Of a DNA stretch of 64,000 nt, positions 1-14,566 are shown in pieces. The notes beneath the pieces were generated by a model. It searched no databases and was not told the origin of the DNA. It saw nothing but the letters and a program-made list of their open reading frames with translations. Every line of letters begins with the position of its first letter. Position 1 is the first letter of the stretch. The position numbers and the translations under genes are program-made. The stretch covers positions 263,296 through 327,295 of the IMG/VR virus record IMGVR_UViG_3300028800_000001. One strand, 5' to 3'. The DNA comes from a virus.

Positions 1-220
1 GACTTTCGCGCAACCATTTTTCTAGTGCATTTTGATTGCCTTGATATGCTTTCCAGGCATCTCTGGCACACAGAGAAATTAAGGGCATTGCTGGATAGAG
101 TGTTTTCGTCTGCCGATCAAGCACCCGACCGCACGGAAGGTTTTGCCAACGTGGATGATTCTTCTCTTCATCATCCACCAGATACACATTTTCGTTTCTG
201 AGATATCCTATAATTTTCAT
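1..220 (-). CDS. partial small protein, member of the ~70-90 aa 'LYP...W..Y....EWLK' partner family (runs off the window start)
   Basis: Minus-strand ATG at 218-220, open to position 1. Translation MKIIGYLRNENVYLVDDEEKNHPRWQNLPCGRVLDRQTKTLYPAMPLISLCARDAWKAYQGNQNALEKWLRES aligns with 2172..2444, 11896..12174 and 13008..13220. Confidence 0.45.
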   Translation of the reverse strand, partial: MKIIGYLRNENVYLVDDEEKNHPRWQNLPCGRVLDRQTKTLYPAMPLISLCARDAWKAYQGNQNALEKWLRES

Positions 221-240
221 ATTTCTTTCTTCTTTCTTTT

Positions 241-1029
241 TTAACAATTGTGGAAGCGATACGGGATCGAAGCCGCATCTAGCTTATCAGTGATTGCTTT
301 GGTTGCATACTTACGCTCCATGAAGACCACTTCTTCAATGTGCTTCACGCGTAACCCCTTGTGATACTGCACCTCTGGATAGGAACGCACCTGCTGCACA
401 CTGGTATAGGAGAGGACGGTGTTGAGGTAACTGGTATCCACTGCTCGGTGATCAGGCGCGGCTACTGGCATTGCCACCAGTTCCATATAGCCACCAAGAG
501 ATGCCTTTCCCAGGCTGTCATCAAACGTAAAGGTCGCTTTACGAGCCACTACATCACGCTTGAACTTTACGGCGATTTGGCCGTACATGCCAACGCTATC
601 ACGGCTTCCTCCCAGCTCACCGTCTGGACTATTGGTCATATATCCGTAGACCGGACGTTTGGTTGGCTCCATATCTTCTGGATAGGAGAACATTGCCAGC
701 TCAAACCTTGCGCGTCCGTCAGGATGATACGAGCCACAAGAGTTCCCTGTTTCAAACTGTGATTTGAAGCGTCCTTCCTCAAGAATCTTTTCGAAGGCCG
801 TAGAACGAACACGCATCCAAAGACCACTTTCGTCTACCAGCTTTTTGACGTGGGCGTCTACCAGCTTTAAAAAAGCTTCAGCCGTGATGCCACGATAATT
901 TGCATGATATTTGACGGTATTCTCAGCATCCTTGTCATAGACGGCCAACATCTTGTCAGAAGGGCGAACATCTTTCAGACGATTGGATGCACCAGGAAAG
1001 CGTTTTGTCGTTGCAACAGCGGTACCCAT
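241..1029 (-). CDS. member of the multi-copy 'GRFKSQFETG / RPxYGY / YPExQxH / GIPY' module family (262 aa), function unknown
   Basis: ORF track. Conserved motifs WMRVRS, GRFKSQFETGNS, RPVYGYMT, YGQIAVKFK, FTFDDSLG, YPEVQYHKG, EVVF, SIPYRF are shared with 1162..2103, 6811..9870 (twice), 12188..13006 and 13223..14170. Strong RBS AAGGAG and an AT-rich promoter lie upstream. Confidence 0.6.
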   Translation of the reverse strand: MGTAVATTKRFPGASNRLKDVRPSDKMLAVYDKDAENTVKYHANYRGITAEAFLKLVDAHVKKLVDESGLWMRVRSTAFEKILEEGRFKSQFETGNSCGSYHPDGRARFELAMFSYPEDMEPTKRPVYGYMTNSPDGELGGSRDSVGMYGQIAVKFKRDVVARKATFTFDDSLGKASLGGYMELVAMPVAAPDHRAVDTSYLNTVLSYTSVQQVRSYPEVQYHKGLRVKHIEEVVFMERKYATKAITDKLDAASIPYRFHNC

Positions 1030-1034
1030 AATAA

Positions 1035-1144
1035 TCTCCTTGAATTAATTATTTTTTTATTTTCCCGCGTAAATCTCTTTACAAAATTAATTATATGCCA
1101 CTAGTATGTAAAAGACAAGCTTTTCTTCTATGAATATTCAGAAA
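1035..1144 (-). promoter_or_regulatory. promoter/leader for 241..1029: TTCTGAATATTCA element, then -35 TTGTCT, N17, -10 TATAAT, then TAATTTT, then AATAATTAATTCAAGGAGA leader
   Basis: Minus-strand reading ...ctgtatttctgaatattcatagaagaaaagcTTGTCTtttacatactagtggcaTATAATtaattttgtaaag...ataaaaaaataattaattcaaggagattattATG. The architecture is almost identical to 39589..39720. Confidence 0.5.
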
Positions 1145-1161
1145 TACAGAAAAGTGGTACT

Positions 1162-2103
1162 TTACGCATGTGGGTTTTTTGCACGATAGGGAATGCCCAA
1201 TGCTTTCAGCTTTTTTACGACTGCGGGTTTGATGTCAGAGCCGTTCTCAAAGACGACTTCAGCAATGTGAGACGTGTTGACGCCACCATGATATTGTGCT
1301 TCAGGGTACGTAGGAACTTCAGCAAGACTGGCATACTTGAGAGGGCTGTCATATTTGAGTGCTGCGAAGCCTGTATGATCTGGCTTTGAGAGTGCAGAAG
1401 GCAGCAAATAGCCAGCAGAAGAGAGTGAATCGTTGCCTGTCCAGGTTGTGTTGTCTTTTATACTCTCTTTTAAGCGTACGGAGACAGAGCCGTACATATC
1501 AACGGTGTCACCCCAACCGGCCTTTGTGGGATCAGCACTTTTGAGGCGTCCATCGCCGTCAGCCGAGAGATAGCCGTATATCGGACGATCTTCATCTTCA
1601 GTTTTCATTTGGTCGTAGCCAAAAAGGTCTTCTTCCACACTAGCGCGATGCCAAACATCCAATAATCCGCCAGATTTACCGGTTTCATGTTGTGATTTGA
1701 AGCGACCATCTGTCAACACCTTGCCGAGTATTTGTGGACGCACTCGTATCCAGGGCTGTGCATCCTTAAAGAGATCAACTGCTTTTTGATCAAGCGCTTT
1801 GGTGTAGTCTTCAACGCTCATGCCAGCTTTGGCTGCTTTAAATGCAAAGACCGTGGCCTTATTGTTGTTATACTTATCAATGATTGCTTGTGGTGGTTTG
1901 AGCTTTTGTAAAATCTTAGGCACAAGGTTATTGGGATGCAGTGGATTCTTCGGTCCTGGCGTTCTGGTGCCATCGCGTGCCACAATCAGGTGCGCTTCTC
2001 CTGCGGTAGAAAAGCGTCCAAGATGATCATGATGTGGGTTGTACTTCTCTTGAAGTTGCAGCACAAGACGTTTAATCAGCCGAATGTCTTTTTGAAAATA
2101 CAT
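1162..2103 (-). CDS. KYNPxH-leader module-family protein (313 aa), function unknown
   Basis: N-terminus LQLQEKYNPHHDHLGRFSTAGEAHLIVARDGTRTPGPKNPLHPNN. Core motifs PWIRVRP, GRFKSQHETGKSGG, LFGY, RPIYGYLS, YGSVSVRLK, TWTGNDSL, YPEAQYHGG, EVVF, GIPYRA. Confidence 0.65.
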   Translation of the reverse strand: MYFQKDIRLIKRLVLQLQEKYNPHHDHLGRFSTAGEAHLIVARDGTRTPGPKNPLHPNNLVPKILQKLKPPQAIIDKYNNNKATVFAFKAAKAGMSVEDYTKALDQKAVDLFKDAQPWIRVRPQILGKVLTDGRFKSQHETGKSGGLLDVWHRASVEEDLFGYDQMKTEDEDRPIYGYLSADGDGRLKSADPTKAGWGDTVDMYGSVSVRLKESIKDNTTWTGNDSLSSAGYLLPSALSKPDHTGFAALKYDSPLKYASLAEVPTYPEAQYHGGVNTSHIAEVVFENGSDIKPAVVKKLKALGIPYRAKNPHA

Positions 2104-2171
2104 ACAAATCTCCAGGCAGAAAAAAGTGTGGTTGCTTTTTATTTTGTGTGAAGATTTGTATGAACGAAGTT

Positions 2172-2444
2172 TTACGAAGCAGGAATGATTTTGACACCTT
2201 TGAGCAATTCTTCTAGCTTGTTTTGGTCACCATCATACTTTTGCCAGGGATCACGTGCTCCCAGCGATACTAAGGGAAGGGGTGGATACAGTGTTTTACT
2301 ATTGAGATCTAACACACACCCATATTTCAGGTCTTTGTTTCCGTGTTCTGGCACGTCGGCTGAGAGGACATAAAGATTGGGATCGTCAGGATGCGATGCA
2401 ATGATTGTTTGTTTTCCCATTGGGGGTTTCTCCTTACTATGCAA
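2172..2444 (-). CDS. small partner-family protein (90 aa) upstream of module-family gene 1162..2103
   Basis: KTLYPPLPLVSLGARDPWQKYDGDQNKLEELLKG matches the 11896..12174, 13008..13220 and 1..220 products. Confidence 0.5.
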   Translation of the reverse strand: MHSKEKPPMGKQTIIASHPDDPNLYVLSADVPEHGNKDLKYGCVLDLNSKTLYPPLPLVSLGARDPWQKYDGDQNKLEELLKGVKIIPAS

Positions 2445-2883
2445 CTTTCTTTACTACTACTAATAACAAATTTTTGAGTGCCAAAATTTCTGCATCCTGT
2501 GCTTCAAGATGCTTTTTTAGCTCTTCATTTTCATGAAAGATCTTGAGCGTGGTTTGATACGTTTCTTCCGCTTGCAATTGCTGATGTCTTCCTAACACGT
2601 CTTGCCCGACCGATAAAATTGATAAGGCAACTAATTGGATGAATGTCTGGCTTGTCCACTGCACATACTGATTGGCGGTTGCATGAAAACCAGGAAAGCC
2701 AAGGATGGCAAGAAATACAAAGAAGTAAGCACACCACATGTTGCTGAGCACATTGGTTACAAAAACCGCCACACGTTGATTGAAGCCACCTGCTTTGCGT
2801 TCTAATGCTTGCAACACATTGACGTTACGCACTTTGTGTGGGTGTTCTTTGTGTTCATATAAAGTTACTTTGTGATCACTCAT
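2437..2883 (-). CDS. membrane protein with 2 TM segments and an N-terminal coiled coil (148 aa), possibly lysis- or virion-associated
   Basis: Hydrophobic stretches FFVFLAILGFPGF and FIQLVALSILSVG; heptad-like N-terminus. Overlaps the stop of the upstream gene. Confidence 0.4.
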   Translation of the reverse strand: MSDHKVTLYEHKEHPHKVRNVNVLQALERKAGGFNQRVAVFVTNVLSNMWCAYFFVFLAILGFPGFHATANQYVQWTSQTFIQLVALSILSVGQDVLGRHQQLQAEETYQTTLKIFHENEELKKHLEAQDAEILALKNLLLVVVKKVA

Positions 2884-2896
2884 CGCTTCCTACTTC

Positions 2897-4234
2897 TTAC
2901 GAATAATAAAAGGTCACACCAGGGCAGTTGGCTACCCCATTGGAAACAATGCCTACGGAAGCACGACCACCTCCACCAATGCTATAAATGCTGCCAACTG
3001 TAGCATTGGCTGGAATAGAAAGCAGCTTTGTTCCACTATTGGTGGTGGCATTGTCATAGATATCAAGCTGCGCGGTTCCGGTCGTTGTCACTACTGCACT
3101 CCAAAGATAGCCAGGAGTGCCTTTGACCACCACATTACCTGCGGTATTGGCAGCTTGCGCAGCGTTCGCCGTCGCTCCAGCCGTGAGCCATGGATTCGTA
3201 TTTTGTGTATTTCCAGGCTGCACTGTCCAGGTTCCTGCTTGCGCACTTTGCATCCCACCAGGAGCAGAACTACTGGTGTAGAGCTCTAGTGTCGCGTTTG
3301 CGGTGCCGCTGGTATACGCCGTCATGCGCACACGAAAGTAGCGAAACGTCACCGCTCGTTCATAGATGACACTCACTGTATTGGTAGTAGTTGAGAGTAG
3401 TGAGCCACTGGTAACATTGGTCATGAGCACATTGACAAAAGCAGCGCCATCATTAGAACCTTGAAATGTGAGTGTTCCTGAATAGGCACTAGAACTAATA
3501 TGAATACTCAGCCATTTATACGCACTGACATCTGTAGAGGGAACCAGATCAGCATTGAGTGATGCGGCGCTCAGCCCTGTTTGTTCAGTAAAGTTTCCTC
3601 GTACTGCCTGTGAACCAGCGGCGTCTATCATTGCTTTATTTGTGCCAGCGCTATCAACCACAGTGACTCCACCGACAAGATTGCTTCCAGCAGGAAGGCT
3701 AGAGAGCAAACTAATATCACCGGTTGCAGCGCTTGCATTTAAGGTTACCGTGAGTGTTTCTGTACTTCCAAGCACACTTGCACGCACACGTATCTTTGTC
3801 AGCCCTGCACAATTTCCTCCTAGCTCCAACGGGCCAGGGCCAACAATGCTTTGCACTGATGTGCTGGTCAAAGAGCCGCCCACTTTTATCCCTTTGGCGA
3901 TCCAGTTTGTGCCATCGACACTGCCATCGACCACGATTGTTGTTGCAGAAGTAAAAGTGCTCAGTGCCACAATTTCTGCTTTCCAGCTTCCTTGACCAGC
4001 ACCAAGAGAAAGGACAACGGTGCCACCAGCAATCGGTGTTTGCTGCGTGCTTTGTGCAGCAGTAATCGTACCGCTTACGCTGAGATCGCTCGTGCTACTG
4101 TAAAGTGGGTTGACAGCAACTCCCAACGCATTATCAGACGTATCCACAAGCACTGTTGGGTGCACAATCATTACCGTACTGTTCGGGCCGGTGTCCACGC
4201 CTGGGACGGTTGGCTCTGTTTGATTAATAGGCAT
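2897..4234 (-). CDS. tail fibre / receptor-binding-like protein (445 aa), rich in T/S/G/A/V
   Basis: The N-terminal 45 aa MPINQTEPTVPGVDTGPNSTVMIVHPTVLVDTSDNALGVAVNPLY are near-identical to the N-terminus of 5370..5822. The rest is a low-complexity Thr/Ser/Gly/Ala beta-rich sequence typical of fibres. Confidence 0.6.
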   Translation of the reverse strand: MPINQTEPTVPGVDTGPNSTVMIVHPTVLVDTSDNALGVAVNPLYSSTSDLSVSGTITAAQSTQQTPIAGGTVVLSLGAGQGSWKAEIVALSTFTSATTIVVDGSVDGTNWIAKGIKVGGSLTSTSVQSIVGPGPLELGGNCAGLTKIRVRASVLGSTETLTVTLNASAATGDISLLSSLPAGSNLVGGVTVVDSAGTNKAMIDAAGSQAVRGNFTEQTGLSAASLNADLVPSTDVSAYKWLSIHISSSAYSGTLTFQGSNDGAAFVNVLMTNVTSGSLLSTTTNTVSVIYERAVTFRYFRVRMTAYTSGTANATLELYTSSSAPGGMQSAQAGTWTVQPGNTQNTNPWLTAGATANAAQAANTAGNVVVKGTPGYLWSAVVTTTGTAQLDIYDNATTNSGTKLLSIPANATVGSIYSIGGGGRASVGIVSNGVANCPGVTFYYS

Positions 4235-5368
4235 CTATTGTATCCTTCCACTGGTGTGCCGCATTTCCCTGATATAAGGAGAGCCCACCACTGCTTTATA
4301 GAGTGAGTTGAGAAAGAAGTTCAGCCAGAGATTTTGATAGGCTACGTAGCCTGCGGGAAGTGTGGGATGAATATTGTCCACATCAATTAAGCTTTGATGC
4401 GTAGAAAAATACGCATAGAGATCAGGGCCAAGAATGATGGACGGAAAACTGGCTTTGAGTGTCAAGATCTTGGTATTAATTGTAGGCGCATTCGCCAGTA
4501 AATTCGTCGTATTGCCCCAACAAATTGTCTTTGGTAATACCACCGTTTTCCCAGCACCAATCACGGCATTGATCATGGTGGTCATGTTACTGATAAAATT
4601 CGTGACGTACGTTCCGCCCTGGTTTGCATCATTGGTACCGTAGAGGAGTCCCACATATTTACCAGGAAAGAGTGCAAGCCACGTCGCAATATTGGCCGCG
4701 CCTTCGACTGCCGTAAACCCACCAATGCCGCCATCCTCCATCAAAGGAAAATTGCTGACCTGGGCATTGATTTGTGCAGGGAGTGTGGTATCGGTGTGCA
4801 AAAAACCTTGTTGCGCAATAGAGTCGCCATAAAAGATCCAATCATCAGCCAGCCCATTTGCTTTATGCACATCCATATTGATCTGCACATTATTGTTAGA
4901 AACCGATCCATTGATTGCAGTGATGCGAATGCGCACCCATTTGTACCCAGTGAGATTCACACTATGCTGACGGCTGTGATAGACGTTTCCGGTTACCGTC
5001 GCAAGCGTTATCCATCCACTTGAGGGTAAACTTCCACCGGCTGCACTATTGGCATCAATCGTGTAAGCAGCAGGAACGTTATAGGAATTATTGCTAATCA
5101 AGGTCGGATCATAGGCACCCGTTGAGGGATCGTTATACCAGACCACAACAGCCGTCGTGAGACTACTCACACCAGAAAGATCATAGGCCAGATACACGGC
5201 TTGCGTCAGCGTGCCACTGTCTGTATTTCCTGTGGGTGCTGTGAGGCAACGCCAATAATTGCCATACGTGCTGTCGTTGGCTTGCGAGGCTGGAAACGCA
5301 CCTGAAAAGTCATCATTGGTATAGGCAGGCACACCACGTGAGATCAGGGGCATTGGAGCTATCGTCAT
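4235..5368 (-). CDS. SGNH/GDSL-type hydrolase (esterase/deacetylase) with an N-terminal carbohydrate-binding-like region, tail-associated (377 aa)
   Basis: Block I FYGDSIAQQG (GDS), block III LLYGTNDA (GxND), block V DVDNIHPT (DxxH). Its start is 2 nt from the stop of 5370..5822. Confidence 0.65.
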   Translation of the reverse strand: MTIAPMPLISRGVPAYTNDDFSGAFPASQANDSTYGNYWRCLTAPTGNTDSGTLTQAVYLAYDLSGVSSLTTAVVVWYNDPSTGAYDPTLISNNSYNVPAAYTIDANSAAGGSLPSSGWITLATVTGNVYHSRQHSVNLTGYKWVRIRITAINGSVSNNNVQINMDVHKANGLADDWIFYGDSIAQQGFLHTDTTLPAQINAQVSNFPLMEDGGIGGFTAVEGAANIATWLALFPGKYVGLLYGTNDANQGGTYVTNFISNMTTMINAVIGAGKTVVLPKTICWGNTTNLLANAPTINTKILTLKASFPSIILGPDLYAYFSTHQSLIDVDNIHPTLPAGYVAYQNLWLNFFLNSLYKAVVGSPYIREMRHTSGRIQ

Positions 5369-5369
5369 A

Positions 5370-5822
5370 TTAATTCCAAGCCCTGACTACAATATTGCTC
5401 GCGCTTGTTCCATTGACGTTGCTAATGCCTGGAGTATAGAGATGCAGCGCTGTTACCTGCACATCCAAAAATAGCGTTTGTCCAGCAGCGAGTACTGGGC
5501 TTCCTGCGGTAGCTGTAACATCTAAGTCCCATTGGATATTGCTAGCCGTGTTATTTTGCACCATCAAATGTGAGATAACGGTGGTGCCAGCGGCTCCCCA
5601 TTTAAAACTATAATCAGTGGTAGCCGCCGTTGCCGCGCCATTAGAGGCGTAGGCTGCAACGTAGCCTGATTGGACGGTTTGTTCAACAAAGAGAGGGTTG
5701 GCAACAATCCCAAAGGCATTATCAGAGGTATCTACAAGCACGCTTGGATGCACAATCATCGTGGTGCTATTGGGGCCAGTATCGACACCAGGAACGGTTG
5801 GTTCAGTTTGGTTGAGTGGCAT
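5370..5822 (-). CDS. tail fibre N-terminal anchor-domain protein (150 aa), paralogous to the N-terminus of 2897..4234
   Basis: MPLNQTEPTVPGVDTGPNSTTMIVHPSVLVDTSDNAFGIVANPLF. It abuts the SGNH hydrolase gene, so the pair may be a split or frameshifted fibre-enzyme fusion. Confidence 0.55.
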   Translation of the reverse strand: MPLNQTEPTVPGVDTGPNSTTMIVHPSVLVDTSDNAFGIVANPLFVEQTVQSGYVAAYASNGAATAATTDYSFKWGAAGTTVISHLMVQNNTASNIQWDLDVTATAGSPVLAAGQTLFLDVQVTALHLYTPGISNVNGTSASNIVVRAWN

Positions 5823-5896
5823 TGTTTTCTCCAGTACAAATCATTGCAACAGAAATGCTATTTTTGTTTGTACTGAAGAATTTAGGAGAAATACAG

Positions 5897-6814
5897 TTAT
5901 TTTTGTTCGTGGCCTTGCAGGGCAAATGCAGTGCGATCTTCCCCAATGCAGAGCCAGAGATTTTCAAACAAGAGTGCTTCGGCAGGAACACTCATTGTTG
6001 GAAAAGCAGCATCTTTGTCAATATACGCTAAAGTGCAGTGTGGTGTAAAGCCATGTGTGTTGTCAATAGGAACAGGCAGAGACGTTCGAAGCTGTTCACG
6101 CCACTCTGCTATCCCTGGAAGGTCTACAGAGGCGTAAAACGGCAGCGTAGCGCTCTCTGTGGGGGTGTTTGTGAAGCACCCGATCCCTGAGACAATGCCA
6201 TGTACCGGAACCGCGTTTGTCGCATAGTCACCGATTGCTTTTTTGAGCTGTGCGGAAAGGGCATCAGGAACATTCTCAGCGCTTCCTAGTATCATCAAAG
6301 TGACATGCAGCTCTTGTGGCTCACATTTCCCTTCACAGTCCAGTGCTATTTTTTGTGCGGCATCTGGCTCCAGATAAAATGCCACCATGATTGGCAAGGC
6401 CGACACAGGTTTAGGTTGCTCTGGTGTTTCTTCTTTGCGTAGCCACAGCGTCTTTAAAAAAGAAACATGCTCTTCGTTGGCGCGAAAGATTGGCGTCTGC
6501 AAAAAGTCTTTGACAGCTATATCGTGTGCTGCAAGATAGCCAATTAATTGTTCTTCATTCTTGACAGGCAACGTCCATGTCGTCTCTTCAAAGATGCTTT
6601 TCTTCTTTGCAGGTTCTTCATCTGAAAGGGTTGCGCGCTCCTCTTCTGGGAGATCATCAAGATTTTCACAAGGCAGCACACGATTCAAAAAATCTTCACG
6701 TGCTTCATCAGTCAATTGGTGCCGTTGCAAAAACTTGGCAACGCGGCGTGAGAGATCAGGTGACATATTGTCAGGTACACTGCTTTTTGCACTATCGTCT
6801 TTGAGTATTTTCAC
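5897..6814 (-). CDS. 2H phosphoesterase superfamily protein (LigT / cyclic phosphodiesterase-like) with an acidic N-terminal extension (305 aa)
   Basis: Two H-x-T-x motifs at the expected spacing: ELHVTLMILG (around aa 170) and FTPHCTLAYI (around aa 262). Confidence 0.6.
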   Translation of the reverse strand: MKILKDDSAKSSVPDNMSPDLSRRVAKFLQRHQLTDEAREDFLNRVLPCENLDDLPEEERATLSDEEPAKKKSIFEETTWTLPVKNEEQLIGYLAAHDIAVKDFLQTPIFRANEEHVSFLKTLWLRKEETPEQPKPVSALPIMVAFYLEPDAAQKIALDCEGKCEPQELHVTLMILGSAENVPDALSAQLKKAIGDYATNAVPVHGIVSGIGCFTNTPTESATLPFYASVDLPGIAEWREQLRTSLPVPIDNTHGFTPHCTLAYIDKDAAFPTMSVPAEALLFENLWLCIGEDRTAFALQGHEQK

Positions 6815-9800
6815 AAAGTGTCTCCATTCAAAATGGTTTTGCCTACACGGGTTGCTGTTCTATTTAAAACTACCAGAAAGTCAGCACGTTTATTGATCGA
6901 ATCTACATGAGAGCGATCAACATAAATGGCATCATAGCCCTTCATTGCGGCGTAGCGACCAGGATCGTTGGCAAGATCAAAGAGCCGATCAATGCGGCGT
7001 GACTCCGTATACTTCCCAGCATCATCCAAGGCTTTGCCCCGTGTACGCAAATCATTCTTGTAGTCAATCCACTCATTGATTAAACGTCCCTTCTCAATTG
7101 CGGTGGTATTTTTGAGTACGGACATATGCAGCACATCATCGCCATAAGTAGCGGCCACATGAGACGCACTATATCGGTCAGATACTCCTTCTGTGGTAAG
7201 CGCGGTATAGGTTCCGTTGCCATAGACGCCAAGTCCTGCAAAATAGTGCCCACTTTGATAGCTTGCAGCATAGCCCAGGCCGTCAGAGGGATCACCACCA
7301 TCATCCACACCGCGATAGAGCTCAGCCTCACCGTCTTTAATGTGCTGCGCAAGCACATTATCTTCAACCACATGTGGAGGGCCATCAAACCCCTGTGCTT
7401 TATAGATTTCCTGTAAGCAGGCGTCGGCATCCGTGGCGCTACTGCTTCCTGGGATTGGGCCTTTGCCTGTATCCATATAGTTTTTGACGTAGGGAATATC
7501 TTCAGGGTTGCTATATTTGGCTTCCGTCTTCTGAAATTCCTGGTTATCAGGGTGTTTCGGTCCTTTCTCGCGGGTACCATCAGCATGCACAAGCAGGTGT
7601 GCATTTTCTGTCGTGGTAAATTTCCCTACGTGATCATGCGCAGGGTTGTACTTTTCTTCAAACTGCTCAACACTTTTTGTTCCTGAGACGCGGTAAGAAA
7701 TGCCTTTGGCTTTGAGTTGTGCCTCAAGCGGTGGTGTAAGCTCATAATCATTATGAAACACAATTTCTGCAATAGTTGAGGTGTTTAGACCACCATGAAA
7801 TTGTGCCTCTGGATAGCCGCGTACATCACTCACGTTTTGGTAGGTCAGTGGATCTGGACCATGCACACTAAAATTGGTATGATCAGGATGCAGCATGCTT
7901 CCTGGCAAGAGATAGCCACCCATACCAAGTGAGTCATCACCTGTCCAGGTGGTTTTTTGCTTCACCTCTGGTTTGAAGCGAACCGCAACGCCTCCATATT
8001 CATCAACAGAGTCGAACATGCCATGCCGCGTCTGTCTCAGGCTTGCGCCGTCAGGATGATCGCTTAGATAGCCGTAAAGTGGACGCTGCTCTTTGGCAAG
8101 ATCGTCTGGATAGCCAAAGAGATCATGTTCTGCTTCAGAACGTGAATCGTGATCCATAATTCCCGCAGAGGTATTGGTTTCAAATTGCGACTTGAAGCGT
8201 TCATCATCCAATATCTTTGAAAGAATTGTTGGGCGTACCCGCATCCAAGGTTCTGCATTCTTGAGCAGTTCCACGGCTTTGTCATCAACGGCTTTGTTGT
8301 ACTCTTCAGCCGTCATGTTATGCGTCTGCGCATGCTTTTCAGCGAACGCTGCACCTTGTATGTCATATTTTTTGAGGACGGCGTCTGGTGGACGCACCTG
8401 TTCTAAGATATCTTTTTTCTGATTATCAGGATGCGCCGGTCCTTTTTCAGTGGTACCATCACGATGCACTAAAAGGTGGGCATTTTCGGTGGTCGTAAAT
8501 TGTCCATTGTGCCCGTGGGCTGGATTATATTTCGCTTCGCCTGTGAGCAGCTCTTGATCACGTGCGGATAAATCTTCTAGCGATTGCACACCCATCAAAC
8601 GATTGAAAAAGTCCTGACGCTCTGCGAGTGTCCAAGAGGCCGCAACAGGGCCAGCAAGAAACTTTTCTACCAGTGGTACTAGATCAGGGGCAAGCGTATC
8701 AGGGATTGTGTTAATGGCTTGATTTTCTGCATCAGTGATTTGATCTTTATGTTCTGGGGTATCATCATCTATTTCCTCGTCATTTTGCTTCTCCTCTGGT
8801 AAATACAATGAAAGATCAAGTGGTTCATGCATCTTGCCGTGGCTGCGATGCCCTGGCTTTTTGCGCGGCACAGGGATAACGCCATGAGCAGGTTTGCCGT
8901 GAGGAGCCGCATGTGGTTTTGCAGCAGGTGCGCCGTGAGCAGCAGCAGGTTTCTTGAGTGGCTTCACGCTCGTTGGCACTGCTGGATGCTTTGGTGGCAT
9001 TCCACCGGTTTGTGACTCAGGGTGTGCCGTAATCTTGAAAAAGTCTTCCCAGGTGGGATTCTTCATTCCAGCTAGCTGATGCAAAATCTCAAAACGTTTT
9101 GCGAAACCTAACGCTGCTTCATCATTGGCTGCATACTCTTTTGAGAGGATCAGGGCTTTGGTTTCTTTGGTGAGAAACTTTCCCAGGATGCCATGATCAA
9201 TGCTGTTGCGCAGAAAACTTTTTCCAATGACTTTCATCAGAAAGCTATGCGACTGGATTGCAATATCTTTTTTGACGAGTGCCGAAGAAAGTTGTGTCAG
9301 GTTAATCTTGCCGGTCTTTTGATTGAGGGTATAGTGTCCAGATTGATCTTGTTTCATGCCAAGAATATATTCCAACATGCCGACTTTGGTCACCTGATCA
9401 GGGGGCATTTTCTCCATTGCCTCGGTTGCCGTCTTATCATCCAGGGGAGTGCTTTTTACATCCTCAGAGACCACTACGGGCTCTTTGTCCACTGTTCCAC
9501 TGTGGACTACAGGCACCGTATCAGAGGCTCCTACCAGATCTGCAATGCGGCTTGCACCGGTCTGTGAAAAGGCAATGCGCGTGCTACCAGTGGGCACAAT
9601 ACGATACGTCTTGCCATTAATGTTGGCGGTATAGACGCCGTCAGCCCCTCTGGTCATTGCCCCTTTGTCGGAGAGGGCTTTCGCAATGTGGGCAGGCATG
9701 GTGGTGAGCACATCAGCGTGCACACCGCCTGCGCCATCATCAGCACCGATGAATTGTCCGGTCGTAGTGCTGTGATTACGGTTATATTTTTCTTCAGGAA

Positions 9801-9870
9801 GATAGAGTGTAAGGTCAGGTTTCTCCTGTTCTTCTATCTCTTTACGAAAGAGAGCATAATGATACTTCAT
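6811..9870 (-). CDS. 1019-aa polyvalent protein: N-terminal unique region, His/Pro/Ala/Lys-rich linker, two tandem KYNPxH-leader + GRFKSQFETN modules, C-terminal ~230-aa domain
   Basis: Repeated LYLPEEK(Y/Q)N, EAKYNPAHGHNGQFTTTENAHLLVHRDGT and EEKYNPAHDHVGKFTTTENAHLLVHADGT. One complete core module (WMRVRP, ERFKSQFETNTSAG, RPLYGYLS, TWTGDDSL, YPEAQFHGG, GISYRV). C-terminus has ELYRGVDDG...GVYGNGTY. Low-complexity linker KPAAAHGAPAAKPHAAPHGKPAHG. Confidence 0.7.
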   Translation of the reverse strand: MKYHYALFRKEIEEQEKPDLTLYLPEEKYNRNHSTTTGQFIGADDGAGGVHADVLTTMPAHIAKALSDKGAMTRGADGVYTANINGKTYRIVPTGSTRIAFSQTGASRIADLVGASDTVPVVHSGTVDKEPVVVSEDVKSTPLDDKTATEAMEKMPPDQVTKVGMLEYILGMKQDQSGHYTLNQKTGKINLTQLSSALVKKDIAIQSHSFLMKVIGKSFLRNSIDHGILGKFLTKETKALILSKEYAANDEAALGFAKRFEILHQLAGMKNPTWEDFFKITAHPESQTGGMPPKHPAVPTSVKPLKKPAAAHGAPAAKPHAAPHGKPAHGVIPVPRKKPGHRSHGKMHEPLDLSLYLPEEKQNDEEIDDDTPEHKDQITDAENQAINTIPDTLAPDLVPLVEKFLAGPVAASWTLAERQDFFNRLMGVQSLEDLSARDQELLTGEAKYNPAHGHNGQFTTTENAHLLVHRDGTTEKGPAHPDNQKKDILEQVRPPDAVLKKYDIQGAAFAEKHAQTHNMTAEEYNKAVDDKAVELLKNAEPWMRVRPTILSKILDDERFKSQFETNTSAGIMDHDSRSEAEHDLFGYPDDLAKEQRPLYGYLSDHPDGASLRQTRHGMFDSVDEYGGVAVRFKPEVKQKTTWTGDDSLGMGGYLLPGSMLHPDHTNFSVHGPDPLTYQNVSDVRGYPEAQFHGGLNTSTIAEIVFHNDYELTPPLEAQLKAKGISYRVSGTKSVEQFEEKYNPAHDHVGKFTTTENAHLLVHADGTREKGPKHPDNQEFQKTEAKYSNPEDIPYVKNYMDTGKGPIPGSSSATDADACLQEIYKAQGFDGPPHVVEDNVLAQHIKDGEAELYRGVDDGGDPSDGLGYAASYQSGHYFAGLGVYGNGTYTALTTEGVSDRYSASHVAATYGDDVLHMSVLKNTTAIEKGRLINEWIDYKNDLRTRGKALDDAGKYTESRRIDRLFDLANDPGRYAAMKGYDAIYVDRSHVDSINKRADFLVVLNRTATRVGKTILNGDTL

Positions 9871-10493
9871 TCGGACTCCTCAACTTCAGCCAGAACGCGC
9901 TCCAGCGCAATTAATTGTTCATTGGAAAGTTTTTCCAGATCAATTGTTAGCTTGTTATGGGTGACGCTTTCTGAGAGCCCTGGAATGTTCTCCATCGCAA
10001 TTTGTTCCGTTGCTGCACCACGTGCCACACGCTCCAGGGAGGAAGCTTCTTTAAAGAGCATGACAGCAGCAGTGGCTCCAAAACGTTTCTCTTTAATCAG
10101 ATCAGTGATTTGCTGTGCTGCTTTAATTGCCATACCAGAGCCGAGTGTGGCATGATTCTCATTCATCTTCTCAATTTCAGCATCACGCTTGCGCTTTTTC
10201 TCTTCTAATTGCTCTTTATCATAGCTACGCACCTGCTCTTGCCAGCCATAGGCACTGCTCCAAATGCCTATTTGCTTATGTGAAGAGCTAATTAATTTTT
10301 CTCTCTTCTCGTCCGTGACCTGTGGTGGAAAAACGCCACTGGCTAGCAGCCGTTCTTGTTCAGCACGCAGCCGCTCCTCCACCAATTGTTCAGCAAGCCT
10401 GCGCAAGCTTCTGGTGTAGCCTTGTTGTTTATAAAGTTCTAATGCATAGAGTGAACGGGTGGTTTCTTCACCCTTTGGCAGTTTACGCGCCAT
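9867..10493 (-). CDS. coiled-coil protein (208 aa), possibly scaffold-like
   Basis: E/K/R/L/Q-rich heptad-like sequence throughout. Start overlaps the stop of 6811..9870 by 4 nt. Confidence 0.45.
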   Translation of the reverse strand: MARKLPKGEETTRSLYALELYKQQGYTRSLRRLAEQLVEERLRAEQERLLASGVFPPQVTDEKREKLISSSHKQIGIWSSAYGWQEQVRSYDKEQLEEKKRKRDAEIEKMNENHATLGSGMAIKAAQQITDLIKEKRFGATAAVMLFKEASSLERVARGAATEQIAMENIPGLSESVTHNKLTIDLEKLSNEQLIALERVLAEVEESE

Positions 10494-10610
10494 ACTTGTC
10501 TCCCCAAGAGATAGTTTTCTTTTTCGTATTTGGTATTTCTCTTTGAGAAGATTTGGAGATTTGATGGGGGATTAATTTTTGAGGTTGTTTCTTTTTCTAA
10601 GTATTTTTTA

Positions 10611-10850
10611 TTACATGGTCTCAATAGAGAGTTCGTTGTCCTTTTTTTTAATTTCTTTTGCCCATAAGACACTGGTGAGCGTTTGCAACAAATAGAGGAG
10701 AATCTTTTCATCAGGAAGATGTGTTTCCTCTTTTGCACCAGCAATAACGTTGCGTAATTCTTCCTGTTTTTCTCCTGTATAGGTAAACACCGATGCAGCA
10801 AAAGAAATAGTTCCGTATACCGTTGGCCCGTAGCCAATTTCTAGCGTCAT
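10611..10850 (-). CDS. hypothetical protein (79 aa)
   Basis: ORF track only. Confidence 0.3.
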   Translation of the reverse strand: MTLEIGYGPTVYGTISFAASVFTYTGEKQEELRNVIAGAKEETHLPDEKILLYLLQTLTSVLWAKEIKKKDNELSIETM

Positions 10851-10865
10851 ATCATCTCCTTTTTT

Positions 10866-11837
10866 TTAATCAGTAAAGAAGGAAGCAGGTTTTCTTTTTT
10901 TGGCGTCCCTACTCTCCCATGGAATTGTTGCAATGACCGCATTCAATGCATTCATCGTCGGATCTTTTTTGCTTTTACTCAGTAGTGCAATTGCATGCAA
11001 ACGTAACTCCAATGCTTTGATCGTACGATCATTCGCTCCAGTGTAACGTGCCATCCGTACAATTTCGTCAGCATGCTCTACAAAAGATCTGAGTACTTTT
11101 TTATTAAATGGCTTCTCGTTTGGATCAGTAGAGCGGGTACCTGTCGCATCTTTAAAAGGGGGCGTGGTGTAATTCGTTGCAATCTTTGACTCAAAGTCAT
11201 TGGTAATTTCATCAGTGCGCAAAGCAAGTCCCATATCGATAAGTTTTAATCCCTTCTCGCCTTTTTGTGTTGAATCAACTAAATAGTTCCCTAAATGACG
11301 ATCACGATCATGAACGACATACTCATAGAGACGAAGTTTCGCATAATTCTCTATACTTAATTTGCTCACCGCAGCCACGCGCTGTTCTTTTGAGAGTGCA
11401 AGCATTGGTGTTCCCTCAACCCACGGCTGGACAGTAACATCTTGTCCATTACGTGCCATTTTTTGCACTGGAAGAGTAAAGTCGCTCACTCCAAGCACGT
11501 CAGCCGTCTTCGATGAAAAAACTGCACGTTCTTCCTGATTGGAAATGCCCATTGCGTCTGCTTCATCGCTGTTCTTTTTTACCAAATAGTTTTTTCCAGC
11601 AATGGTTGTCTTGTAGGTTGCATTCAAACTATCGCCACGCCCAAATTGCTGCAATGATGCTGTTTGAAGTTGCCCCTGGCTAGGAAAGCGTTTATCACTA
11701 TTTGGAGTCATATCTAGAGCCGAAGGCGATGACGCAAATCGACCATCTTCCTCATCGTGATAATAATTGTACTTGCGCTGATAGGCATATCTTCGTAACC
11801 GTACGGCTCGCGGCATCTTACATCTCTCCTGATACAA
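10866..11837 (-). CDS. protein kinase-like (HxDxxxxN...DMG) domain protein with a KYN-type N-terminal leader (323 aa)
   Basis: N-terminus LRRYAYQRKYNYYHDEEDGRF resembles the KYNPxHxxxGxF leader. Catalytic-loop-like VHDRDRHLGNYLV and DFG-like LIDMGLA. AT-rich promoter upstream. Confidence 0.55.
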   Translation of the reverse strand: MYQERCKMPRAVRLRRYAYQRKYNYYHDEEDGRFASSPSALDMTPNSDKRFPSQGQLQTASLQQFGRGDSLNATYKTTIAGKNYLVKKNSDEADAMGISNQEERAVFSSKTADVLGVSDFTLPVQKMARNGQDVTVQPWVEGTPMLALSKEQRVAAVSKLSIENYAKLRLYEYVVHDRDRHLGNYLVDSTQKGEKGLKLIDMGLALRTDEITNDFESKIATNYTTPPFKDATGTRSTDPNEKPFNKKVLRSFVEHADEIVRMARYTGANDRTIKALELRLHAIALLSKSKKDPTMNALNAVIATIPWESRDAKKRKPASFFTD

Positions 11838-11840
11838 AAG

Positions 11841-11898
11841 GATAATTAATTATTTATTTTGTGAGTGCGAGACATTTCTTTTTAAAATTAATTATTTA
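11841..11898 (-). promoter_or_regulatory. AT-rich bipartite promoter/leader for 10866..11837 (minus: TAGACA-N18-AATAAT-TAATTTT ... ATAAATAATTAATTATCC-RBS)
   Basis: Same TAATTAATTTT / AATAATTAATT paired elements as at 1.04, 17.46, 25.89 and 39.60 kb. The promoter overlaps the stop of 11896..12174. Confidence 0.4.
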
Positions 11899-12174
11899 CA
11901 TCGTTTCGATATCATGTCTATCTTCTTTTTTCTCAGCCAAACTATCGGCAACAGGGGTTGCATCCTTTAGCCATTCTTGTAGTACGTCTTGAGAGTCGGT
12001 GTAAGGTTCCCACTCTTGTCTGCTTTGCAGTGTCGCAAGGGCATTGACTGGATACAGTTTTTTCTCATCACTGTAGTAGATTTGCCCCAGGTGTTGTGTA
12101 CGTCCATAGAGCATTCCTGTGCCCAGGTCAAGCAGGTAATACCCATCTTCGTCACGTCCAAGTATTTTTTTCAT
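11896..12174 (-). CDS. small partner-family protein (92 aa) upstream of kinase-like gene
   Basis: MKKILGRDEDGYYLLDLGTGMLYGRTQHLGQIYYSDEKKLYPVNALATLQSRQEWEPYTDSQDVLQEWLKDA is a paralogue of 13008..13220, 2172..2444 and 1..220. Confidence 0.5.
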   Translation of the reverse strand: MKKILGRDEDGYYLLDLGTGMLYGRTQHLGQIYYSDEKKLYPVNALATLQSRQEWEPYTDSQDVLQEWLKDATPVADSLAEKKEDRHDIETM

Positions 12175-12187
12175 TTTCTTTTCTCCT

Positions 12188-13006
12188 TTAAAGCTTTACC
12201 GTAAATGGAATGCCTGCGCTGTTCAGTGCCTTTTTTATAGGGGCTGTTGGTGCTTTCCCATGAAAGGTAACACTTTTGATATCGCTTGTTGAGACTCCAC
12301 CATGCACCTGTGCTTCCATATATTCATTTGCCAGATCACGTGGTCGCAAGGGATCAATACCGTTATAGAGTGGATAAATGCGACTATCAGGATGCGTCAC
12401 TGGTTGTGGAATGACGCTTTCGTAGTGTCCACCAGAGGTCATTGCCAGTGAATCACCATAGGTCATAGTAGCACGATCTCGTGTTTCTGGCTTTAGTTCA
12501 ACAGCTACGTTCCCATATTGAGAAACATCTGCATCAGTATTGTCTCCATGAGTATCTTTTGAGAGATATCCATAAATGGGACGGTTCTCCACCCCTGCTT
12601 TTGCTTCATCAAATCCAAAGGCACCAGATTCTAGTTTATCTCTTGAATCTTTGGCAACGCTTCCGCCACTCTTGTTTGTCTCGAATTGACTTTTGAAGCG
12701 ACCGCCATCCAATATTTTTTGGAGTGCTGACGGTTTTACTCGTACAAAGAGTCCAGTATCTTTGACTGCATCTTGCGCTTGCTTATCAAGCGTTGCTTTG
12801 TAGGCATCAGGTGAGAGACCATGACGCTCCCCAAAGATTTCGTAACGCAGATGGGTGTTGTCAGCAAACTCAGAGGCCCAGTGCTCTGTAGGATGTACTC
12901 CCAGGCTTTCTAGTGTCTTGCCGGAACCACCCTCAGAAATAAATTCACCATTTGCATCGCTATGCGCATGATTGTATTTCCTTTGGACTGCGTAGCGAAA
13001 CCGCAT
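12188..13006 (-). CDS. KYN-leader module-family protein (start adjusted to MRFRYAVQRKYNHAHSD), function unknown
   Basis: The ORF-track start at 13168 overlaps the upstream gene. The internal Met at 13006 abuts the stop of 13008..13220. Core motifs FVRVKP, GRFKSQFETNKSGG, RPIYGYLS, YGNVAVELK, MTYGDSL, YMEAQVHGG, GIPFTV. Confidence 0.55.
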   Translation of the reverse strand: MRFRYAVQRKYNHAHSDANGEFISEGGSGKTLESLGVHPTEHWASEFADNTHLRYEIFGERHGLSPDAYKATLDKQAQDAVKDTGLFVRVKPSALQKILDGGRFKSQFETNKSGGSVAKDSRDKLESGAFGFDEAKAGVENRPIYGYLSKDTHGDNTDADVSQYGNVAVELKPETRDRATMTYGDSLAMTSGGHYESVIPQPVTHPDSRIYPLYNGIDPLRPRDLANEYMEAQVHGGVSTSDIKSVTFHGKAPTAPIKKALNSAGIPFTVKL

Positions 13007-13007
13007 A

Positions 13008-13220
13008 TTACTCTCCAACCTTCTTTGCCGTCTTGAGCCACTCATTGACTTTTTCTTGTACACCATCATAGGGCTCCCAGGCAGTTCCACGCGTGAGCAT
13101 CGTGGCAATGGATTGTGGTGGATACAAGAGATGTTTCTCTTGATCATAAATCTGGCCCATTTTTTCATCTTCAGTCAGGATGAAGCGTACTCCATCATCA
13201 GAGACAGCAAATATTTTCAT
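13008..13220 (-). CDS. small partner-family protein (70 aa)
   Basis: MKIFAVSDDGVRFILTEDEKMGQIYDQEKHLLYPPQSIATMLTRGTAWEPYDGVQEKVNEWLKTAKK. Confidence 0.5.
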   Translation of the reverse strand: MKIFAVSDDGVRFILTEDEKMGQIYDQEKHLLYPPQSIATMLTRGTAWEPYDGVQEKVNEWLKTAKKVGE

Positions 13221-13222
13221 GG

Positions 13223-14170
13223 CTATGATGCTCCTGCTACGCTATACGGAATATTTTCTCGTTGTAATAATTTAGTCAGCGCCGCGCTTGGTGCTTTACT
13301 ATGAAAGACAACGTGTGCAATGTGACTTTTTGAGACACCGCCATGCATTTGTGTTTCGGTGTACACATCTTTGATGAGTGAGGTATTTCCTTCTGGACTG
13401 TTATAATTGCTTGCTGCGGTCCCTGTTGGCTTGAGTACTGGATTAGGGAGCATTCGTGGTGCATCCTCACTTCCTCCTTCGTCAAGCGAATCGCCAAGTG
13501 TAAACGTACTTTTTGCCCTCACTTCAGGTTTGAAGCGGATTGCCACATCACCGTAAGCTGAGGCAAAGTTTTGTTCGCCATTTGCACCATCACTTAAATA
13601 CCCGTAAATTGGTCGATCTTCTGACTTGGTCTTTTGATCATAGCCAAACATCTGCTCTTCTTGTTCAGCTCGACTCTCAAGATAGTTGGTCAGTTTGATC
13701 TTATTGGCTCCAATAGCCGCGCCGGTCTTATTGGTTTCGAAGGCACTCTTAAAACGACCATCAGTAAGAATGCCTTGCAGTCCTTTGCTTGATGTTCGTG
13801 TCCATAACTCTCCAGGCGTTACCAGGGCAACAATGTGTGCATCTTCGCGTGCTTTGAGTGCATCAGCCGTGATAGGTTTTCCTAAATCCGTCCATGAGTC
13901 AGCAAAGTTCTTGAGTCGCTGATTGTACGTAGCTTCAAAATTCTTTGTCCAGGCGGCACTCGGATGCACATTTTTCAGCACCGGATCAAGTTGATTGTCA
14001 GGATGCTTTGGCCCCAGCGTTCGCGTTCCATCACGTGCGACAGAGATATGAGCTTCGCCAGCCGTTGAGAACTGTCCCAAATGATTGTGATGTGGGTTAT
14101 ATTTTTGTGCCCAGGCATGTGCCAACATCCGCATCCGTTTCATACGATCATAGAGAAAAATGTCTTCCAT
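13223..14170 (-). CDS. KYNPxH-leader module-family protein (315 aa)
   Basis: QKYNPHHNHLGQFSTAGEAHISVARDGTRTLGPKHPDNQ, then GRFKSAFETNKTGA, RPIYGYLS, YGDVAIRFK, FTLGDSL, YTETQMHGG, HVVF, NIPYSV. Confidence 0.65.
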   Translation of the reverse strand: MEDIFLYDRMKRMRMLAHAWAQKYNPHHNHLGQFSTAGEAHISVARDGTRTLGPKHPDNQLDPVLKNVHPSAAWTKNFEATYNQRLKNFADSWTDLGKPITADALKAREDAHIVALVTPGELWTRTSSKGLQGILTDGRFKSAFETNKTGAAIGANKIKLTNYLESRAEQEEQMFGYDQKTKSEDRPIYGYLSDGANGEQNFASAYGDVAIRFKPEVRAKSTFTLGDSLDEGGSEDAPRMLPNPVLKPTGTAASNYNSPEGNTSLIKDVYTETQMHGGVSKSHIAHVVFHSKAPSAALTKLLQRENIPYSVAGAS

Positions 14171-14182
14171 CAGAGCTCCTTG

Positions 14183-14458
14183 CTATTTACTCGCATTTTT
14201 TCTTTTTGTTCGCATGTACGCTAATCGTTTTTCAAATTCTTCAGCAATAAGTTTATTGGTTTGATAAGTCAGATGCGGATGCCATCCTCCAGCTTCAGGA
14301 AGGCCATTGACAATACGTAAGATATCTTCAATCATTTTCATACGTTCGTGGCGAATAGCCTGATCAATGCTACGCAGTGTGACAAAGATACCAAACAGCA
14401 AGATCAGGAGGAAACAGCCAAGACTGATCAGGCCATGAGCCACGATCCATTGGCTCAC
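14183..14458 (-). CDS. small membrane protein (91 aa)
   Basis: N-terminal TM IVAHGLISLGCFLLILLFGIFV. Confidence 0.35.
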   Translation of the reverse strand: MSQWIVAHGLISLGCFLLILLFGIFVTLRSIDQAIRHERMKMIEDILRIVNGLPEAGGWHPHLTYQTNKLIAEEFEKRLAYMRTKRKNASK

Positions 14459-14566
14459 GTAAAGCGCTCCTTTCGAAAGAAAAGCACAAAGTAGTGTTTG
14501 GAGGATTTTGTATTGGTGAAGAATTTGGAAGGATGTGTCTAGTATACCGCAGCGCGTGACAAAAGG

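Follow-up and report, generated by a model that had tools for sequence, protein, structure and literature searches.

The small genes described here lie in a stretch of 64,000 nucleotides of the IMG/VR virus record IMGVR_UViG_3300028800_000001 (positions 263,296 to 327,295), called the window below. Its first 14.2 kb are part of a cargo or late block beside the terminase gene of a phage of ~327 kb, and the block is likely to encode proteins that are packaged in the head and injected along with the DNA. Four short genes in it encode members of an undescribed protein family built on a domain of ~65 residues, and five DUF3626 domains of the same block are SopF-like ADP-ribosyltransferases (ARTs) that are predicted from their sequence motifs to be active. 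It is highly probable that the DUF3626 ART has the small family as its partner, usually encoded just after the ART gene. The original prediction, made from the letters of the DNA, had recognized a repeated two-gene cassette, in which each small gene was paired with the gene 3' of it, a gene carrying a leader that begins K-Y-N (the KYN leader). The repeated small protein plus effector, of the immunity/toxin type, stands; the partner and the orientation were wrong for most of the copies. The genes concerned are listed here.

1..220, minus strand: small copy 1, partial in the window (full length 77 residues, P0004); 20 nt downstream of the DUF3626 gene at 241-1029
2172..2444, minus strand: small copy 2; the gene caller prefers the ATG at 2420, giving 82 residues (P0002); follows the gene of a 148-residue membrane protein (2437-2883)
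11896..12174, minus strand: small copy 3, 92 residues (P0001); 13 nt downstream of DUF3626 'b', the pair being conserved in the relative L008
13008..13220, minus strand: small copy 4, 70 residues (P0003); 2 nt downstream of DUF3626 'a'
13223..14170, minus strand: DUF3626 'a', 315 residues, leader KYNPHHNHLGQF; PF12294 at 37.3 bits, phrog_8314; putative partner copy 4
12188..13006, minus strand: DUF3626 'b', 272 residues (P0007), leader KYNHAHSDANGEF; PF12294 at 48.5 bits, phrog_8314; putative partner copy 3
1162..2103, minus strand: DUF3626 'c', 313 residues, N-terminal leader KYNPHHDHLGRF; PF12294 at 22.1 bits; putative partner copy 2, the small gene lying upstream
241..1029, minus strand: DUF3626 'd', 262 residues, the only stand-alone copy without a KYN leader; PF12294 at 34.3 bits, phrog_8314; putative partner copy 1

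The small domain and its DUF3626 partner

All four of the small open reading frames (ORFs) that had been predicted are present on the minus strand. In a six-frame translation of the window every pair of them is related by phmmer, with E-values from 2e-14 to 1.4e-4, the next ORF being at E of at least 0.03; a hidden Markov model (HMM) of the four finds no fifth copy in the 64 kb (next match E 0.015). Residues G31, L41, Y42, P43, R53, W56, Y59, Q63 and L70 are invariant in the four-copy alignment, in agreement with the common core of ~60 residues that had been claimed. A word-indexed search with the four copies gave one relative outside the window (P0005), and it was with iterated HMMs and a 40-sequence profile that a large family was obtained: there are at least 120 stand-alone homologues of 39-156 residues by this profile, and those that have a name in their source are all 'hypothetical'. 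The orthologues in L008, which is the nearest relative for comparison, have amino-acid identities of 52-59%; no phage with near-identity to positions 1-14500 was found in GenBank, and there is thus no close deposited relative.

The domain is of the alpha/beta type, with the core motif G-[RQ]-[VI]-x-D ... L-[YF]-P ... S-[IL]-x-A-R-x-x-W-E, and the consensus of the wider family is K-[IV]-[IV]-A-x-[RQ]-G-x-x-x-Y-L-[IL] ... G-[QR]-[IV]-x-D ... L-[YF]-P-P ... S-I-L-A-R-G-Y-W-E; the copies in the window, with A-R-[DEQ]-x-W, branch off as a divergent group. An AlphaFold2 model (predicted local distance difference test score, pLDDT, 88.5) comprises three beta-strands, a short hairpin, a helix at residues 47-53 and a C-terminal helix, with the conserved A-R-x-x-W at the end of helix 47-53. 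No significant fold match of the domain was obtained, and none to macro, helix-turn-helix (HTH) or any chaperone fold. No model of Pfam, PHROGs, NCBIfam or PADLOC matches the small proteins (PADLOC was run on P0004 and P0263), and matches to spectrin and GH120 were sub-threshold and were discarded. Because there is no model in these four collections, a definition of the family would annotate more than 100 'hypothetical' proteins.

It had been claimed that each copy lies directly 5' of a leader gene, and this holds for all four. Copy 4 is 1 nt from the leader gene at 12188-13006, copy 3 is 58 nt from that at 10866-11837 and copy 2 is 68 nt from that at 1162-2103. On contigs carrying copy 1 at full length, it is followed on the off-window side by a 326-residue gene with the leader-like YKGNTNHSTANGQFISG, a looser form of the motif, and then by the gene of the large terminase. 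DUF3626 genes are found equally tightly in front of three of the small genes, with 13223-14170 before copy 4, 12188-13006 before copy 3 and 241-1029 before copy 1 (2, 13 and 20 nt). Since genes are tightly packed on both sides of the small genes, adjacency within the window cannot settle the pairing. The supposed partners also do not make up the single leader family that had been proposed: two are DUF3626 genes (1162-2103 and 12188-13006) and two are kinase-like (10866-11837 and the off-window gene), and, the latter being unrelated to DUF3626, the 'leader family' amounts to two unrelated effector families with a common leader.

Evidence on the pairing comes from the contexts of the domain in other genomes. 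In samples anchored on the small domain, taken from pattern scans of metagenomes and viral contigs, a DUF3626 gene lies directly upstream of 30 of the 46 distinct copies and is fused to three, the remainder (13/46) having none. Look-ups on long contigs place a DUF3626-containing gene, ending -4 to +12 nt upstream, before seven of eight stand-alone homologues, one of these seven genes having been missed by the gene caller. Among 78 viral loci anchored on DUF3626, the small domain is detectable with an iterated HMM in ~40%, where it is always directly 3' of the DUF3626 ORF (from an overlap to a gap of ~50 nt), joined to its end, or forming the N-terminal part of the ORF that comes next; many of the DUF3626 loci in which no small domain is detectable have in the same place an unassigned ORF of 60-130 residues with family-like features. 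Followed across related genomes, as had been suggested, the small family keeps one effector family as a dedicated neighbour in many unrelated phages, the neighbour being DUF3626 and its position mostly upstream. The leader gene on the 3' side fares poorly as the partner: of 59 distinct copies of the small domain, only two have a leader-type delimiter after them.

Individual loci illustrate this. P0005, the first homologue found outside the window, begins 3 nt after a DUF3626 gene that is itself behind a portal-MuF fusion, and is followed by small ORFs rich in lysine and proline (K/P-rich), with no leader gene. In L008, an orthologue of 'b' (51% identity) is followed by an orthologue of copy 3 (52%), and the gene after that encodes a 208-residue protein, not the kinase-like protein; a second DUF3626 gene of L008 has the small domain fused at its C-terminus. 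The lack of a kinase-like gene 3' of this copy 3 orthologue, together with the context counts, argues that the kinase-like leader genes are not partners of the small proteins.

Fusions occur in both orders, DUF3626 preceding the small domain in ~25 and following it in four of the 150 cluster representatives listed; it should be noted that the profile used for this search included the DUF3626 columns of three fusion proteins, so that most of its 2488 matches are DUF3626. The minority order, with the small gene upstream of DUF3626, is that of copy 2 and 'c' (a position kept in L008), of Bacillus phage SP-15 and of the four N-terminal fusions. SP-15 gp270 is a member of the small family (36% identity, template modelling score 0.76), and its gene overlaps the start of that of gp271, which holds a DUF3626 domain (L096, NC_031245, 7001-9518). 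SP15_270 and SP15_271, both of which carry the annotation 'hypothetical', belong to a cultured phage and so offer a system for experiments in culture. The C-terminal domain of SP15_271 is homologous to the C-terminus of the 1019-residue protein of the window, which is described below. A comparison of the paralogues in the style of a mirror tree supports only 'b' with copy 3, which are co-orthologous with their L008 counterparts, and is too weak by itself for 'a' with copy 4. On the combined evidence the pairs in the window would be a/copy 4, b/copy 3, d/copy 1 and c/copy 2.

The idea that the small protein is a detached C-terminal part of DUF3626 as modelled in Pfam was rejected, being without support in the sequences; the small domain also occurs N-terminally and apart from DUF3626. 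One family member of the latter kind, P0271 (L088 4001-4204), is found in a small integrase-bearing element with a fragment of an S78 protease and with no DUF3626 within 4 kb. This element may be a satellite or a degraded prophage that has retained just the small gene.

The identification of the partner as an ART begins from the Pfam model PF12294, the gathering score of which is 27 bits. Genes 'a', 'b' and 'd' are above this score, and 'c' and a domain inside the 1019-residue protein (window 7621-8508; 23.1 bits) are below it, the latter two being 34-49% identical to 'a', 'b', 'd' and each other. All four stand-alone genes and the middle of the 1019-residue protein match phrog_8314 and Pfam DUF3626. 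Salmonella SopF belongs to DUF3626 (PMC6682159); it is an ART, its triad is I-Y-E, and ARF GTPases activate it (PMC10333799). At the level of sequence, a profile built from 125 homologues of phage and metagenome origin matches the SopF chain 7dn8_C (E 2e-7), with an alignment that spans RPIY, YG and Y-x-E-A-x-I-H-G; the position of the Glu in the last motif is the one that carries an introduced Asp in the NAD complex 7dn9. Foldseek with an AlphaFold2 model of the homologue P0108, which like P0130 is a natural fusion and not a window protein, gives SopF as the top match (7dn8_A, E 2e-6, and 7dn9_A), followed by DarT (E 1e-3). RP[IVL]YGY and Y-x-E-x-Q-x-H, and with them the catalytic Glu, are invariant across all five window domains ('d', for example, has RPVYGY and YPEVQYH), and the Ile and Tyr of the SopF triad can be putatively mapped onto them through the RPIY alignment. 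Because the catalytic motifs are kept in all five, these domains are predicted to be active ARTs. Text searches, including those for 'SopF-like' and PF12294, found no paper linking SopF-like (DUF3626) ARTs to phages.

Possible functions of the small protein

The explanation that we favour, and to which we would give an even chance, is that the small protein is an ART-binding, immunity-type inhibitor of head-packaged SopF-like ARTs. Each small protein would bind its cognate ART and keep it inactive while late proteins build up in the producing cell, and in this way would serve as an immunity-type 'safety catch'; the leader-bearing ART would be packaged and would be active only once injected into the next host. 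It seems that bacteria have captured the ART-recognition domain: in some cases it has been joined to an ADP-ribosylglycohydrolase or a nuclease, in others it stands beside restriction systems, and such captured forms could plausibly neutralise or sense injected ARTs. What the analysis shows is the family, its pairing with DUF3626, the ART identity of the latter and the fusions; we infer the physical binding, the inhibition, the packaging and the role in defence. An inhibitor is favoured because a module that binds and blocks the ART fits all of the bacterial contexts, which an activator or a packaging chaperone does not. Further support is that many DUF3626 homologues are MuF fusions or follow portal and MuF genes (MuF plus DUF3626 in P0017, P0031, P0034 and L095; L007 follows portal-MuF), and that the small proteins of the window are without the KYN leader that marks every other effector module.

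The bacterial contexts, which discriminate best between the readings, are varied. In a Bacillota genome (L097 1297-2427) an ADP-ribosylglycohydrolase (PF03747, E 9e-63) carries the small domain at its C-terminus, and a fusion of this composition is found in JAJZCB010000102.1. Elsewhere the domain is found behind a Zn-ribbon in PD-(D/E)XK nucleases (among them those of Lederbergia citri and Bacillus sp. IITD106) that match the PADLOC candidate PDC-S26 (E 2e-12), the match being to the nuclease part of the fusion and not to the small domain; it precedes the REase-ARP nuclease in another fusion; in an arg operon, two tandem copies lie next to an inserted pair of methyltransferase and EcoRI-like genes; and the domain overlaps a gene combining EVE with AAA_5 (McrB-like). 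Besides L097, the loci from bacterial genomes and metagenomes are the following.

L101, L102, L104 ~3836-5326; L113; L121 3839-5164
L099, L100 3935-4747; L098 3620-4168; L110 1576-4414

Taken together with the phage genes, these loci allow a wider, tentative proposal, for which the chances are clearly below even, that the small domain is a portable recogniser of SopF-like ARTs used by both sides of the phage-host conflict. To the phages it would be the safety catch for injected ARTs, and to bacteria a sensor or antidote head that detects or neutralises an incoming ART, in the forms of the glycohydrolase, PDC-S26 nuclease and REase-ARP fusions, the tandem copies with restriction-modification genes and the overlap with the EVE/McrB-like gene. 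If this were true, a defence strategy would have been made from the phage's own immunity protein.

Several observations weigh against an inhibitor that is the dedicated partner of the ART. The main one is the frequency of C-terminal fusions of DUF3626, linker and small domain that have no delimiter between the domains. An inhibitor attached permanently in this way would need a release step, and a positive cofactor would be expected to form such fusions just as well. The small domain also stands, in several phages, at the N-terminus of a large polyprotein that is probably packaged, and therefore it may travel with the ART. The fusion to ADP-ribosylglycohydrolase is known from just one or two genomes. 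Moreover, ~60% of the DUF3626 loci have no small domain detectable by HMM, and the same applies to the DUF3626 domain in the 1019-residue protein, while 13 of the 46 small domains have no DUF3626 nearby.

Part of this evidence would suit a rather unlikely alternative, namely that the small domain is an activating or targeting cofactor, an obligate positive subunit of the ART that is supplied by the phage and co-packaged as an analogue of ARF. On this alternative the domain turns the ART on or steers it to its substrate. SopF is inactive without its bound protein cofactor ARF1 (PMC10333799; 7dn8, 7dn9); fusion within one chain is frequent, occurs in both orders and is without a delimiter in the C-terminal type, which is the signature of proteins that work together; and the small domain can be the first module of probably packaged polyproteins. 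It is, however, hard to rationalise why an activator should be fused to an ADP-ribosylglycohydrolase, which reverses the modification, or should lead bacterial nucleases in defence-like contexts. The gene order and the small overlapping ORF match the toxin-then-immunity arrangement (PMC5576092), and the stand-alone copies are without the leader that every other cargo module bears. An improbable reading is that the domain does not bind the ART at all and is instead a ligand sensor for NAD+, ADP-ribose or an ADP-ribosylated product, a reader that regulates the attached enzyme. All of the fusion partners (ART, ADP-ribosylglycohydrolase and nuclease effectors) belong to, or are able to respond to, ADP-ribose chemistry, and the strongly conserved A-R-G-Y-W-E could make a ligand pocket. 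Yet the domain has just ~65 residues and is unlike Macro, WWE, PBZ or other known ADP-ribose readers, and its association is specific to DUF3626: in L008 the Alt/VIP2-type ART modules (PF03496) are without the small domain and both of the DUF3626 genes have it.

The pairing originally proposed would make the small protein a packaging chaperone or adaptor that escorts the 3' KYN-leader protein into the procapsid. This has become very improbable and is largely refuted by the context counts. Every small gene of the window does precede a leader gene, and a few phages fuse the small domain in front of a delimiter and another effector, such as the topoisomerase IB of L048; but the low frequency of a following delimiter (given above) is accompanied by a diversity of downstream genes (DUF5824, DUF5872, thioredoxin, K/P-rich ORFs), and similarity among the small proteins does not follow the kind of gene downstream, as copies 1 and 3, both of which precede kinase-like genes, fall in different subgroups. 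The domain is found in non-phage bacterial contexts, and the isoelectric points of the small proteins (9.1, 5.5, 4.7 and 5.1) are not uniformly acidic. The likeness to chaperone/effector pairs that had been suggested is made less likely by the presence of the domain in bacterial chromosomes as a fusion to ADP-ribosylglycohydrolase and to nucleases; a chaperone of the kind used in type III secretion (T3SS) was also considered and rejected, on the same isoelectric points, the lack of a chaperone fold match and the occurrence in bacterial enzymes outside any delivery context. That the ORFs are non-functional, whether as chance ORFs or as decaying duplicated fragments, might be thought from their shortness and the lack of a database family, and can be given practically no weight: at least 120 stand-alone homologues with the conserved motif in unrelated phages and bacteria, the identity to the L008 orthologues, the confident AlphaFold2 model and an annotated homologue in the cultured SP-15 refute it.

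There are several known systems with which the cassette may be compared. Among the MuF polymorphic toxins of temperate phages, a small ORF of putative immunity function comes after 89% of the toxin genes (Jamet et al. 2017, PMC5576092). An effector that is linked to the head protein MuF and followed at once by an ORF of less than 150 residues is also seen for DUF3626 homologues and the small family, although the text of PMC5576092 has no occurrence of DUF3626. In contrast to the MuF toxins, the window ARTs are stand-alone, leader-bearing and present as four paralogous pairs in a phage of ~327 kb, neither MuF nor the portal having been located in the window; the small family is also found fused to the ART, and the fourth window pair (c/copy 2) is in reverse order. 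The prophage ART Bxa is neutralised by the small binding protein Bsi and the ADP-ribosylhydrolase BAH (Alexei et al. 2024, PMC11699363). Here, too, a phage-borne ART has a small neighbour, and in one bacterial lineage the small domain is also fused to ADP-ribosylglycohydrolase; the difference is that binding and inhibition by Bsi are experimental and those proposed here are deduced. In the Tre1/Tri1 pair of type VI secretion (T6SS), one immunity protein reportedly combines occlusion of the active site with ADP-ribosylhydrolase activity (Ting et al., Cell 2018). The L097 fusion of ADP-ribosylglycohydrolase and small domain has that logic, with a different toxin family and delivery route.

SopF itself is of the same domain family as the DUF3626 genes, with a common fold and catalytic Glu motif. 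It differs in being a T3SS effector that depends on a cofactor from the host and is directed against the V-ATPase of eukaryotes; the phage proteins are without the SopF N-terminal region, and have the KYN leader and a phage-encoded small partner. In the structural comparison of the DUF3626 model (P0108), DarT ranks second, and the existence of a fused DarTG (7omu) indicates that ART-antidote fusions occur. The antidote DarG, unlike the small protein, is a macrodomain with enzymatic activity; DNA is the target, and the pair is a host defence module and not phage cargo. A type II toxin-antitoxin system of the DarTG or ParST type was rejected, given that the small proteins have no Pfam domain and no macro or HTH fold, and that the context is one of phage late or cargo genes.

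The small protein family is new, and so are its occurrence in four paralogous pairs, its fusion to DUF3626 in either order and its co-option by bacteria. The DUF3626/SopF family of the partner genes was already known, and the cassette would by analogy work in the manner of MuF-toxin/immunity or Bxa/Bsi modules. ARTs packaged in the head are regarded as first-strike weapons that are widespread among phages, and beyond T4 Alt almost none has been characterized (PMC9503650). The small domain provides a marker for finding ART effector cassettes, and the small protein, as a probable inhibitor, a reagent for expressing and studying ARTs that are otherwise toxic; it also provides a testable connection from phage ARTs to bacterial proteins that may sense or disarm injected enzymes.

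The KYN leader, the polyvalent protein and the kinase-like proteins

The leader motif K-Y-N-x-x-H-x-x-x-G-[QRKE]-F is found seven times in the window, in every case within 1-14.2 kb, and three of the seven occurrences are in the 1019-residue protein. The features are as follows.

14092, 12964, 11759, 9774, 8517, 7638, 2034, minus strand: KYN motifs (motif scan)
6811..9870, minus strand: polyvalent protein, 1019 residues, with three KYN motifs (residues ~30, ~450, ~743) at module starts
10866..11837, minus strand: KYN-leader kinase-like protein; weak PF00454 match (E 0.0025), with DRHLGN and IDMG motifs
L052 2731-5496 and P0178: further examples of the delimiter motif

The modules of the 1019-residue protein are an N-terminal kinase-like module, the internal DUF3626 ART and a C-terminal domain held in common with SP-15 gp271; there is no small domain. 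Polyvalent proteins with head-packaged ARTs have been described (Iyer et al. 2017, PMC5512222; Iyer et al. 2022, PMC9503650), in which ARTs, 2H phosphoesterase and MuF are combined in multi-effector polypeptides that are encoded near terminase and portal genes and are predicted to be injected. The 1019-residue protein and its neighbours fit this description; neither 'DUF3626' nor 'SopF' occurs in the text of these two papers.

The KYN leader is one variant of a general delimiter that stands before the modules of polyvalent packaged phage proteins. In a 983-residue protein of L046 (1604-4552), K-F-N-P-N-H-D-A-R-G-R-F alternates with H-x-D-Q-K-x-H-G, and other lineages have the delimiter H-P-R-x-x-x-G-x-F. 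In polyproteins that begin with the small domain, there is a delimiter after this domain; where it stands behind DUF3626 in one chain, there is no delimiter between the two; and the stand-alone small proteins of the window have no KYN leader. Literature searches for the motif strings found no description of the delimiter. Among phage internal proteins, those of T4 have capsid-targeting sequences, and by analogy the delimiter may be a capsid-targeting or processing signal. With the leader recognized as delimiting cargo modules in general, experiments on how polyvalent proteins are processed and packaged come within reach.

The kinase-like proteins are a family weakly resembling PI3/PI4 kinases, with the motifs DRHLGN and IDMG and with three leader-bearing modules: the gene at 10866-11837 (minus strand), the off-window 326-residue gene (L001 10311-11291) and residues ~30-290 of the 1019-residue protein. 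In L008 the kinase-like domain is located elsewhere, fused behind an Alt/VIP2-type ART. The family may represent a packaged atypical kinase.

The surrounding block

All genes between 1 and 14.2 kb are on the minus strand. The longest contig with these proteins has 327,295 bp, and over this region the IMG/VR contig L009 is identical to the window. In the direction of transcription the order is DUF3626 'a', small copy 4, DUF3626 'b', small copy 3 and the kinase-like gene at 10866-11837; then the genes of a 208-residue protein, of the 1019-residue multi-domain protein (6811-9870) and of a 2H phosphoesterase (5897-6814), with four more genes; and finally small copy 2, DUF3626 'c', DUF3626 'd' and small copy 1 at the window edge, beyond which the contigs with full-length copy 1 continue with the 326-residue gene and the large terminase.

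The 2H phosphoesterase, a member of the 2'-5' RNA ligase superfamily, is encoded directly after the polyvalent protein both in the window (5897-6814, minus strand) and in L008 (17054-18211), and its position beside the polyvalent protein fits the published association of 2H with packaged effectors. The 208-residue protein is coiled-coil-like, and its gene (window 9867-10493, minus strand; L008 11422-12048; 71% DNA identity) sits between effector genes; its sole database hint is to a small terminase subunit model, far below threshold (16.8 bits against a cut-off of 120).

An ORF of 75 residues (L008 9702-9929), which lies upstream of the DUF3626 gene of L008, resembles the N-terminus of DUF3626 'a' up to the leader (FDQIKRMRMRAEVWAKKF compared with YDRMKRMRMLAHAWAQKY). 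It looks like either the remnant of a lost unit of ART and small gene, or the seed of one that was gained in the window phage.

Other genes of the region differ from L008 or resemble each other. A 125-residue ORF (window 15383-15760, minus strand) matches only the first 64 residues, with the DPPYG motif, of a 446-residue N6/N4 DNA methyltransferase that is found at the syntenic place in L008; the remainder is absent from the window, where two membrane-protein genes lie in its place (region including 14567-15386, minus strand), so that the methyltransferase of the window appears to be truncated or replaced. Lastly, the proteins encoded at 2897-4234 (445 residues) and 5370-5822 (150 residues), both on the minus strand and flanking a GDSL-lipase-like gene (4235-5368), have near-identical N-terminal regions of ~45 residues, MP[IL]NQTEPTVPGVDTGPNST.MIVHP.VLVDTSDNA, and this common N-terminus may be an attachment module of structural or fibre proteins.

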